A program made the position numbers and the translations under genes. A model generated the notes under the pieces. The model ran no database searches. It saw nothing but the letters and a program-made list of their open reading frames with translations, and was not told where the DNA came from. A stretch of DNA of 33,127 bases from positions 1 through 33,127 of the IMG/VR virus record IMGVR_UViG_2534682108_000003. One strand, written 5' to 3'. The DNA is from a virus. Taxonomy: Duplodnaviria > Heunggongvirae > Uroviricota > Caudoviricetes. Shown here piece by piece: positions 320 to 2,059 of the stretch. Positions within the stretch are counted from its first letter, which is position 1, and every line of letters starts with the position of its first letter.

Positions 320-835
320 CTATGTAGTTTTTTGATCTTCAAGAATTTTTTGCAACTCCGCGTTGTCGTTAGCGTGAGTTGCTCTGTGGGAATTGTACTC
401 TTCAAGAGTTTCATTGCGTTCTTTTAATTTTTGAGTGTAGGTGTTGCTTATAATATCGTGGCGATCTTGTAACACCTGCTCAAGTTGCTTACAGAAATCG
501 TTTATCTTCTCTTGCGAGATAATATCTTTATATTTTTCAATATCCTTTCTAAGGAGTTTTTCTTTTCTTTTATTAATACTTAATAATTGCCTGTTTACAC
601 TGCCAAGTGACCATTTAAAACCAAGCGTTTTAATCCAATGAGACAAAAACATTGCCAAGCATGGAAGTGCAAGTAATATCCATGACTTAAGCGATGACAA
701 ATCTGAATCTATAAACGATAAGTGGCCATCCCAAGATGCTACAACTAAGGTAACAGCCCCAGTCAAGCCACTAGCAACAGCATTCGAAATAAGAGGTACT
801 TTTTCGTAACTTTCAGGCGTTGTTTTGTCAGTCAC
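320..835 (-). CDS. hypothetical membrane protein: two predicted TM helices followed by a K/E-rich coiled-coil tail
   Basis: Frame of track ORF 320..916; preferred start is GTG at 833-835 with AAGGAGG 5 nt upstream, overlapping the stop of the upstream 82-aa gene (GTGACTGA); hydrophobic segments LISNAVASGLTGAVTLVVASW and WILLALPCLAMFLSHWI; C-terminal heptad-like charged region; no recognisable catalytic motif. Confidence 0.45.
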   Translation of the reverse strand: MTDKTTPESYEKVPLISNAVASGLTGAVTLVVASWDGHLSFIDSDLSSLKSWILLALPCLAMFLSHWIKTLGFKWSLGSVNRQLLSINKRKEKLLRKDIEKYKDIISQEKINDFCKQLEQVLQDRHDIISNTYTQKLKERNETLEEYNSHRATHANDNAELQKILEDQKTT

Positions 836-1076
836 TAGCGCCTCCTTTGACAGCTCTCCCCTTACGGATGGCGGACATTGCGACTTCATAGAATTCATCA
901 TCAGAAGTAACATCAATGGATTGCATGTGGCTTATGCCTTTATCATCAATATATTCCAGCAGCAATCTATGTCTTGGGGTACACATAAAGCGCAGGCGAT
1001 CAAACAAAATCTTGAAAACCCAGTAAAAAACAGGGAGGACACTGAAAAAGGCCAGCCAAAAAGCAAATGCTGTCAT
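828..1076 (-). CDS. hypothetical small membrane protein (82 aa, N-terminal TM helix)
   Basis: ATG at 1076 with G-rich SD (GGGGAGGGGA) just upstream; N-terminal hydrophobic helix MTAFAFWLAFFSVLPVFYWVF; lies 28 nt downstream of the 290-aa gene on the same strand. Confidence 0.4.
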   Translation of the reverse strand: MTAFAFWLAFFSVLPVFYWVFKILFDRLRFMCTPRHRLLLEYIDDKGISHMQSIDVTSDDEFYEVAMSAIRKGRAVKGGASD

Positions 1077-1103
1077 CGTCCCCTCCCCATGTTATGTGAT
1101 GTG

Positions 1104-1976
1104 CTATAAAATTGCGTTAACTCTACCAACTATGTACGCTTTGTCCAGTGAATTCAAGTTCTCGCGAACTAGCAAGTCCACATAGTAAACATCACTAAAA
1201 ATCCCCGGTTCAAGGCCTGTTCGAACACGCTGCAAAAACTCTTCGTCTTCTATGCTTACGTTTACTGTCTCGTCTTCATAGTTTGCTCTCCATCCCGTAT
1301 TTTTATCTTTATGAATAGTCAGGAACGTGATTGGAACATCTTCGAGGATTTGTTCTGAAAATGCCTGCTCCACCGGAACTCTTCTGTATCTAAATGGTTC
1401 GATTTCATTTTCAGAAACATTTACAAGCTCAACCCCTTGAGGCGTGGTTATCTTAAATGATTCATAACCCTCTTTTTGTAAAGGATTATGTATTATTTTA
1501 GATAATGACTTGCGGATAGTCGGAGATGACAAGAGTGGTCTGAAATATGATGGCGCTATAATTTCAAAACCATCCTCAAGAATGATTTTACAGTCACCAT
1601 CGGCGGTCAAGGTTATACGACGTATTTGTCGGCCGTTAATGCTTCTTATTATATCTATCAATGTGTTGCCAGCAGCAAGGGCACCTGTAGCCCCCAAGCC
1701 GATAATACTCAAAACATCTAAATACTGCGTTGGATTCTGGATTACATCAATTAAATACTCAAACGACCCTTCTCGGAAGGGTTCAACATCAACATTGAAA
1801 TTCTCACTTGTTCCATTGACAACTATATTAACTTCCTTCAGAAGGTTGTTTAAACCATTAAGGGATTCTGTTAAAACATCCAAATCTATTTTATGGTTAG
1901 CCAATGCCTCACCATCATATTTAACTACCAACTTTTCTACTACATTCTCTTCTAAAAACGCACCAAATTCAGACAT
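1104..1976 (-). CDS. hypothetical protein (290 aa), first gene of a three-gene operon; function unknown
   Basis: Long uninterrupted ORF starting at ATG 1976; no motif I can assign; contains a glycine-rich hydrophobic segment VLSIIGLGATGALAAG (possible nucleotide-binding loop or buried helix). Confidence 0.55.
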   Translation of the reverse strand: MSEFGAFLEENVVEKLVVKYDGEALANHKIDLDVLTESLNGLNNLLKEVNIVVNGTSENFNVDVEPFREGSFEYLIDVIQNPTQYLDVLSIIGLGATGALAAGNTLIDIIRSINGRQIRRITLTADGDCKIILEDGFEIIAPSYFRPLLSSPTIRKSLSKIIHNPLQKEGYESFKITTPQGVELVNVSENEIEPFRYRRVPVEQAFSEQILEDVPITFLTIHKDKNTGWRANYEDETVNVSIEDEEFLQRVRTGLEPGIFSDVYYVDLLVRENLNSLDKAYIVGRVNAIL

Positions 1977-2059
1977 ATTAATTATCCATATTTAAGTCTA
2001 AAGAAAGATATTTTCTCTAATTCATTTATGCTAACGTAACGCTGTTACGATTCGAGCAT

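Follow-up and report, generated by a model that had tools for sequence, protein, structure and literature searches.

The question raised by the first two kilobases of the virus record IMGVR_UViG_2534682108_000003 from IMG/VR (Caudoviricetes) is which function is carried by three short genes, here designated A, B, and C, that lie at positions 320–2059 between a tyrosine integrase gene and a gene for an Xis/AlpA-like helix-turn-helix (HTH) protein. The whole stretch analyzed, positions 1–33,127 of the record, is referred to below as the window. The original prediction, made from the sequence alone, described the three genes as a tightly coupled operon of unrecognizable proteins and as a candidate undescribed defense or abortive-infection module. 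Our analysis assigns A to the family of gp29, a defense protein of mycobacteriophage MichelleMyBell (MMB), and indicates that A-B-C is probably a prophage defense cassette of the gp29 family that protects the lysogen from other phages.

Gene A Encodes a Protein of the gp29 Family

The prophage-mediated defense system gp29/gp30 of MMB was reportedly described by Dedrick et al. in 2017 (Nat Microbiol 2:16251) and is represented in DefenseFinder by the model 'MMB_gp29_gp30'. The product of gene A matches the NCBIfam model NF053583 with 182.4 bits, against a curated cut-off of 60 bits, over residues 17–281 and profile positions 2–277 of 292. It also matches the PADLOC candidate PDC-S42 (model PDLC05015; E 2.7e-34, residues 15–273) and phrog_3243 (5e-92). 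The score on Pfam DUF7946 was 25 bits, below the gathering threshold of 27 bits, and concerned the N-terminal residues 17–79 alone. NF053583 and PDC-S42 are also matched by MMB gp29, with 181.4 bits and 1.6e-16, respectively.

Direct comparison of A with gp29 gave a probability of 96.1% with a shallow profile of the A family and of 99.0% in hhalign with a profile of 149 sequences (E 6.2e-18, 269 columns end to end). The two proteins are bridged by ORF19 of Lactobacillus phage A2, which matches A at 99.4% and gp29 in BLASTP at 8e-5. In a Vinavirales prophage of Vibrio, a tblastn search of phage genomes revealed a further A homolog, which its depositors had annotated as 'MMB_gp29_gp30__gp29'. 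Sequence identity between A (290 aa) and gp29 (310 aa) is only about 24–27%. By these profile matches A is a bona fide full-length protein of the gp29 family. At the aligned position in the N-terminal helix, where a LAPAL-type motif would be expected, the sequence is DLAPSLLAL in A2 ORF19, DLAPAMMAI in the homolog at locus L038 and VLTESLNGL in A.

The description of the three products as unrecognizable and undescribed is thus not tenable, since A belongs to NF053583, PDC-S42 and phrog_3243, and B and C to phrog_15510 and phrog_15878, respectively, both PHROGs of unknown function. No paper was found in literature searches on PDC-S42, DUF7946, the 'LAPAL motif' or LAPAL family, and the RefSeq protein accessions. 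The name given by PGAP to members of NF053583, 'LAPAL motif-containing putative phage structural protein', is already attached to the protein of E. coli JNEC-KY208. It is likely a misnomer bound to spread through RefSeq, because every genomic context seen contradicts it and because the defense protein MMB gp29 falls into the same model.

An exhaustive hidden Markov model (HMM) search for the wider gp29/LAPAL family recovered 2,318 clusters (50% identity) at E ≤1e-3 and 990 at E ≤1e-10, nearly all 280–320 aa in length and matching end to end. Partner patterns were read from sampled distant members. Small membrane partners accompany the members at loci L038, L040, L041, and L042 and in MMB. Solo genes were found in phage A2, between lysin and int, and elsewhere, one of them adjoining a Type ISP restriction enzyme and another adjoining MmeI-like and PLD-SNF2 genes. 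The occurrence of many relatives as solo genes speaks for A as the functional core, with B and C as partners specific to their clade; it also agrees with the handling of the family by PADLOC as a single-gene candidate.

Genes A, B, and C Form a Conserved Mobile Unit

The original prediction had proposed to check whether the three genes co-occur elsewhere. When the six-frame open reading frames (ORFs) of all loci retrieved were searched with an HMM for each gene, a fixed triad, in the order A, B, C on one strand, was present in 34 of the 34 gammaproteobacterial loci examined. These loci belong to Escherichia, Klebsiella-type, Salmonella, Citrobacter, Pantoea, Proteus, Providencia-type, Aeromonas, Vibrio, and Photobacterium genomes. 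Across genera B is 32–40% identical and C about 22%. A profile search with C recovered only 32 clusters, from the same taxa as the close clade of A.

The triad occupies several distinct slots. The int-xis slot of the window is shared with 12 other loci. Directly downstream of a cI-type repressor with HTH and S24 domains it was found in Vibrio, Proteus, and metagenomic prophages (12 related loci). One of the loci with a cI-type repressor (L035, 3949–4560) encodes a repressor 51% identical to lambda cI followed by A-B-C in place of rexA-rexB, a naturally occurring exchange of modules in the lambda immunity region. Salmonella and 17 E. coli genomes carry the triad in antisense orientation between the helicase and replication genes of a PolA-type prophage, and in another case it adjoins the integrase of a Vinavirales prophage. 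An Aeromonas island (L009, 1–5364) carries it beside type I restriction-modification, Fic, and Mrr_N genes. The same triad-bearing island also occurs in Aeromonas beside type VI secretion system genes for Hcp, PAAR, and VgrG (L010, 1–2049). Downstream in the Aeromonas island are genes for a Mob_Pre relaxase and a D5-type primase, an arrangement that suggests a mobilizable element.

Carriage in E. coli amounts to 19 of 5,426 complete genomes and is chromosomal every time, and a scan of species-representative genomes with narrow peptide patterns returned only three loci. A-B-C is fixed in composition and translationally coupled, and is exchanged as a unit among unrelated mobile elements.

Comparison with Known Prophage Defense Systems

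An anti-phage role of the abortive-infection type is the best-supported function of the cassette because A is homologous to gp29 of a validated prophage defense and matches a PADLOC defense candidate. It also adjoins restriction systems in unrelated elements, and the slots of the triad (int-xis, after cI-type repressors, antisense in early regions, and beside restriction systems) are sites of lysogen-expressed accessory genes. The defense or abortive-infection part of the original prediction therefore stands as the best-supported reading, for a triad that proves to be a conserved, co-transferred cargo unit, while the qualifier 'undescribed' has to be dropped.

In MMB (KF986246), gp29 is followed by the overlapping gene for gp30 (67 aa), with two transmembrane (TM) segments, and the pair is located between the lysis cassette and the integrase. 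gp29 was reported to be the toxic part and gp30 a putative membrane protein (PMC11856565). The system is abortive-infection-like, acting after DNA injection (PMC6426606), and phage Tweety plates four to five orders of magnitude less well in its presence, an effect counteracted by Tweety gp54 (PMC8549241). The cassette of the window resembles it in that gp29 and A are end-to-end homologs within the same NCBIfam and PADLOC models, in the presence of a small membrane-protein gene directly downstream (B with one TM segment and C with two, compared to two in gp30), and in its location near the integration/immunity region of a temperate phage. Unlike gp30, however, B is 82 aa long and has a single TM segment followed by a predicted cytoplasmic domain, and the B profile showed no sequence similarity to gp30 (hhalign probability 2.7%). 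C, at 171 aa and with its long tail, differs from the 67-aa gp30 in both length and architecture, and has no counterpart in MMB. Because the homology to gp30 fails and a third gene is added, A-B-C is considered a variant of the gp29-type prophage defense rather than a plain member.

In a DefenseFinder survey the gp29-gp30 model was found only in Actinobacteria (PMC10482375), in contrast to the gammaproteobacterial hosts of A-B-C. The same paper glosses gp29-gp30 as a predicted (p)ppGpp synthetase, a description that applies to Phrann gp29 and not to MMB gp29, so that it is uncertain which model was meant. PDC-S42, NF053583, DUF7946, and phrog_3243 differ from the system described here in being uncharacterized single-protein families in which the partners B and C are not recorded, and PDC-S42 is an unvalidated candidate.

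The RexAB system of lambda is similar in layout, comprising a soluble protein of about 280 aa and small membrane protein(s), expressed from the prophage and with abortive infection as the likely outcome; the Rex-like systems Sbash gp30/gp31 and CarolAnn gp44/gp43 may be likened to the cassette in the same way. In Vibrio, Proteus, and other relatives the triad occupies the rexAB slot directly after a cI-type repressor, whereas in the window it occupies the int-xis slot instead. RexB is reported to have four TM segments, which several hydrophobic segments in its sequence fit, in contrast to one in B and two in C, and RexA lacks the hydrophobic central segment of A. Homology of A to RexA was rejected (hhalign probability 0.1–0.4%), and no match to Pfam RexA or RexB was obtained. 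Another pair, gp30/gp31 of the cluster N mycobacteriophage Butters, is also prophage-encoded, consists of a soluble protein and a downstream partner, and is found in the same genome region as MMB genes 29 and 30. Its proteins have 403 and 187 aa, and homology of A to Butters gp30 was rejected as well (hhalign probability 0.07%).

Predicted Structure of A and Possible Mechanism

The confident structural model of A predicts an N-terminal strand and a long helix, followed by a central segment, a middle domain of the alpha/beta type and, at the C terminus, an OB-like barrel (about residues 206–289). The central segment (about residues 85–113) is hydrophobic and rich in Gly and Ala, and represents the single conserved hydrophobic stretch of the family. 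Near-invariant residues of the C-terminal domain are W229, D244, and F247. The glycine-rich sequence IIGLGATGALAAG, which had been proposed as a nucleotide-binding loop, is better explained as part of the family-wide hydrophobic stretch, in a segment with indels; A contains no Walker A motif, and the pattern GxxxxGK[ST] was found in one of 149 family members. A sequence search of solved structures with A gave nothing credible, a Foldseek search of viral predicted structures, run on a poor model of A, matched only uncharacterized proteins, and a Pfam scan of longer family members revealed no informative fused domains.

A membrane-anchored trigger-release mechanism is possible and is put forward tentatively. 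Inactive A would be held or positioned at the inner membrane by the cytoplasmic domains of B and C. When a sensitive phage infects the cell, a trigger would arise in the form of a phage protein or of a nucleic-acid intermediate and may be recognized via the OB-like barrel of A with its near-invariant residues. A would then be released or activated, and its toxic activity, possibly exerted via the hydrophobic Gly/Ala-rich segment together with the helices of B and C, would halt growth before the phage cycle is completed. The outcome would be abortive infection after DNA entry, like that reported for MMB. The original prediction had inferred the polarity of a soluble sensor and membrane effectors. 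Such a polarity is possible; it is not favored over the reverse, because gp29 was reported as the toxic part (PMC11856565) and many relatives occur without a membrane partner.

Alternative Functions of the Cassette

Four other functions were considered, all of them less well supported than prophage defense of the gp29 type. By hydropathy, B and C are small inner-membrane proteins, the genes are located in lysogeny-expressed slots, and prophage exclusion proteins of such a size are generally known to be common (e.g., Charlie gp32, PMC6426606). These features would be consistent with envelope superinfection exclusion, in which B and C, assisted by A from the cytoplasm, would keep the DNA of incoming phages out in the way of SieA/SieB, Sim, HK97 gp15, or Charlie gp32 without killing the cell. 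The homologous MMB system, however, was described as acting after adsorption and injection (PMC6426606), and it is the soluble A, often without a membrane partner, that is conserved as the core of the family, which makes exclusion an unlikely function. The reported toxicity of gp29, with gp30 as its partner (PMC11856565), and the tight translational coupling of the genes could also indicate a toxin-antitoxin or addiction module, with toxin A neutralized by B and/or C and with stability of the prophage or island as the main role. Against this, solo homologs of A persist in phage A2 and in chromosomal defense islands, the related E. coli prophage in CP062876 has a frameshifted C and an intact A, and MMB gp29/gp30 is strongly anti-phage (PMC8549241). 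We regard an addiction role as improbable, although toxin-antitoxin function and abortive infection are not mutually exclusive.

The cargo position and AT-rich composition of the block would suit any moron, including a lysogenic-conversion cassette with a non-defense function such as envelope-stress tolerance or a colonization trait. The homology of A to a validated defense protein and the repeated adjacency to restriction-type genes speak against such a cassette, for which we see a small chance. Finally, the NF053583 name, the frequency of the family in phage genomes and a marginal profile match of A residues 225–284 to the MS2 coat protein (E 0.0013), which had no passing stretch and was put down to chance, could be taken to mean that A is a phage structural or morphogenetic protein, with B and C as lysis- or assembly-related membrane proteins. 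But in every context examined the gene lies outside the structural module, its sites being the int-xis slot, the position behind cI, the interval from the lysis genes to int, and antisense locations in early regions, and it is present in non-phage islands beside restriction enzymes and in both tailed and Vinavirales prophages. No structural match of A to capsid or tail proteins was found, and a structural role is very improbable.

Gene Organization, Composition, and Expression Signals

The coordinates of the cassette and of the neighboring features are listed in Table 1. The three co-directional ORFs on the minus strand were found exactly where they had been predicted. The gap between A and B had been given as 28 nt and is one nucleotide shorter; the Shine-Dalgarno sequence expected in it is present. 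At the B/C junction, a 4-nt GTGA overlap had been noted, while the real overlap comprises 8 nt (GTGACTGA, 828–835). The AAGGAGG Shine-Dalgarno sequence before C was confirmed 5 nt upstream of the GTG codon. The longest ORF of C extends to a TTG at 916, and the GTG start was chosen because of the RefSeq annotation of the homolog in E. coli EC31 and the position of the AAGGAGG sequence.

Table 1. Features of the A-B-C cassette and its surroundings in the window.
Feature	Coordinates	Strand	Description
Xis/AlpA-like HTH protein	63..299	+	Convergent with C; other border of the int-xis cargo slot
Gene C	320..835	-	171 aa from GTG; two TM segments and charged tail; phrog_15878
Gene B	828..1076	-	82 aa, ATG start; one N-terminal TM segment; phrog_15510
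A-B spacer	1077..1103	-	27 nt; ribosome-binding site GGGGAGGGG
Gene A	1104..1976	-	290 aa, ATG start; soluble gp29-like protein; NF053583 'LAPAL_fam', PDC-S42, phrog_3243
Spacer between integrase stop and A start	1977..2059	-	83 nt, AT-rich; presumed site of the cassette's own promoter
Tyrosine integrase	2060..3249	-	Arm-DNA-bind_3, SAM_3, and catalytic domain; frameshifted by 2-bp insertion at 2919–2920
tRNA-Arg(CCU) argW	3424..3498	+	Attachment locus
Second integrase intS	3624..4817		Beyond argW, followed by another prophage

The block is AT-rich, as had been estimated by eye: the GC content is 38.3% over 320–2059, compared to 45.9% in the window and 48.4% in the integrase gene, and GC at third codon positions is 0.34 in A and C and 0.58 in the integrase. 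Hydropathy analysis confirmed the predicted topologies. The single TM segment of B spans residues 3–21, at the N terminus, and is followed by a basic stretch and a domain of about 55 aa predicted to be cytoplasmic. The TM segments of C are located at residues 15–33 and 46–68, and its charged tail of roughly 100 aa is helical and predicted to be cytoplasmic, with 15 K/R and 17 D/E in 81 residues. By the positive-inside rule, the soluble parts of both proteins should face the cytoplasm.

Compared to the 78%-identical copy in E. coli EC31, B and C have ratios of nonsynonymous to synonymous substitution rates (dN/dS) of 0.115 and 0.126, respectively. For A the proportion of nonsynonymous differences (pN) is 0.12, and that of synonymous differences (pS) is saturated at 0.77. 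All three are conserved as proteins in Enterobacterales, Vibrio, Aeromonas, Proteus, and Photobacterium. Judged by these substitution patterns, A, B, and C are real genes under purifying selection and not chance ORFs.

Expression signals are less distinct. A consensus scan of the 83-nt spacer upstream of A detected no promoter, the best match by eye to a sigma-70 promoter being only 8/12 (TTAGCA-18-TATCTT). No terminator was detected after C, and promoter and terminator counts were no higher than in shuffled sequences. Alignment of the upstream spacers across loci revealed no conserved promoter boxes and only a GGA-type ribosome-binding region. At 2035–2049 (minus strand), upstream of A and just past the integrase stop codon, there is a perfect 6-bp palindrome with a 3-nt spacer, CGTAAC-AGC-GTTACG. 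It could be a small hairpin or operator, and is not conserved among the other int-xis loci aligned. Gene C contains a tandem AAAAG-AAAAG-AAAAA run (window 557–571), and several C homologs in the databases are only about 97–110 aa long. Truncation of the charged tail of C may therefore recur, possibly through slippage at the AAAAG run.

Genomic Setting and Nearest Relatives

The nearest relative, E. coli O157:H16 (CP062876), differs from the window by just two indels across 3.5 kb. One is the insertion that frameshifts the integrase gene of the window (Table 1); the gene of CP062876 is otherwise identical and intact. The integrase had been described as decayed, whereas a single 2-bp insertion relative to an intact gene makes it a very recent pseudogene. 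The other indel is the absence from CP062876 (L001, 8549–8830) of one 5-bp AAAAG unit, which frameshifts its C gene after the TM region. The remainder of the CP062876 prophage is degraded by insertion sequence (IS) elements. It contains a truncated gene for a DGQHR-domain protein (Dnd/Dpd-type) and a gene for an Rv2179c-like 3'-5' exoribonuclease (L001, 2327–3124 and 4827–5486), interrupted by IS3 and IS66 elements. These genes are possibly further defense cargo. In E. coli EC31 the order int-A-B-C-xis is found within a lambdoid prophage that is complete, its phage genes including those for cI/Cro and RusA.

The setting had been assigned to a P4-type integrase. The domain architecture of the integrase is indeed P4-like, but the cassette lies where int and xis meet in the remnant of a lambdoid-type prophage. 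argW is placed between two integrase genes: 5' of this tRNA-Arg(CCU) gene is the prophage with the cassette, whose int is read in the direction away from the tRNA gene, and on the 3' side intS is followed by a second prophage with tail-fiber, baseplate, and other genes, out to 33 kb.

Implications for the gp29 Family

Although the finding does not constitute a new category, it sets a database name right and widens the range of a validated system. Three database entries (the candidate PDC-S42 of PADLOC, the NCBI family bearing the name 'putative phage structural protein', and phrog_3243, to which no function is assigned) are tied to one validated mycobacteriophage defense. The defense family is thereby extended beyond Actinobacteria to prophages of Salmonella, Klebsiella, E. 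coli, Vibrio, Proteus, and Aeromonas, with different membrane partners, and tools that require a gp30 homolog are therefore not expected to call A-B-C as a system. With its location in the rexAB slot, the cassette is a further example of non-homologous defense modules that replace each other at a single prophage hotspot. The presence of a version in a tractable E. coli host, together with a confident model of A and specific residues, makes the gp29-type mechanism directly testable.

A broader and rather speculative proposal is that the gp29/LAPAL/PDC-S42 family represents a widespread immune protein, in which the OB-like barrel would sense phage nucleic acid or protein and the hydrophobic segment would kill at the membrane. 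In Gammaproteobacteria, B and C would have been recruited to it as a three-part inner-membrane complex that replaces RexAB non-homologously. If true, this would be a new mechanistic class of abortive infection.

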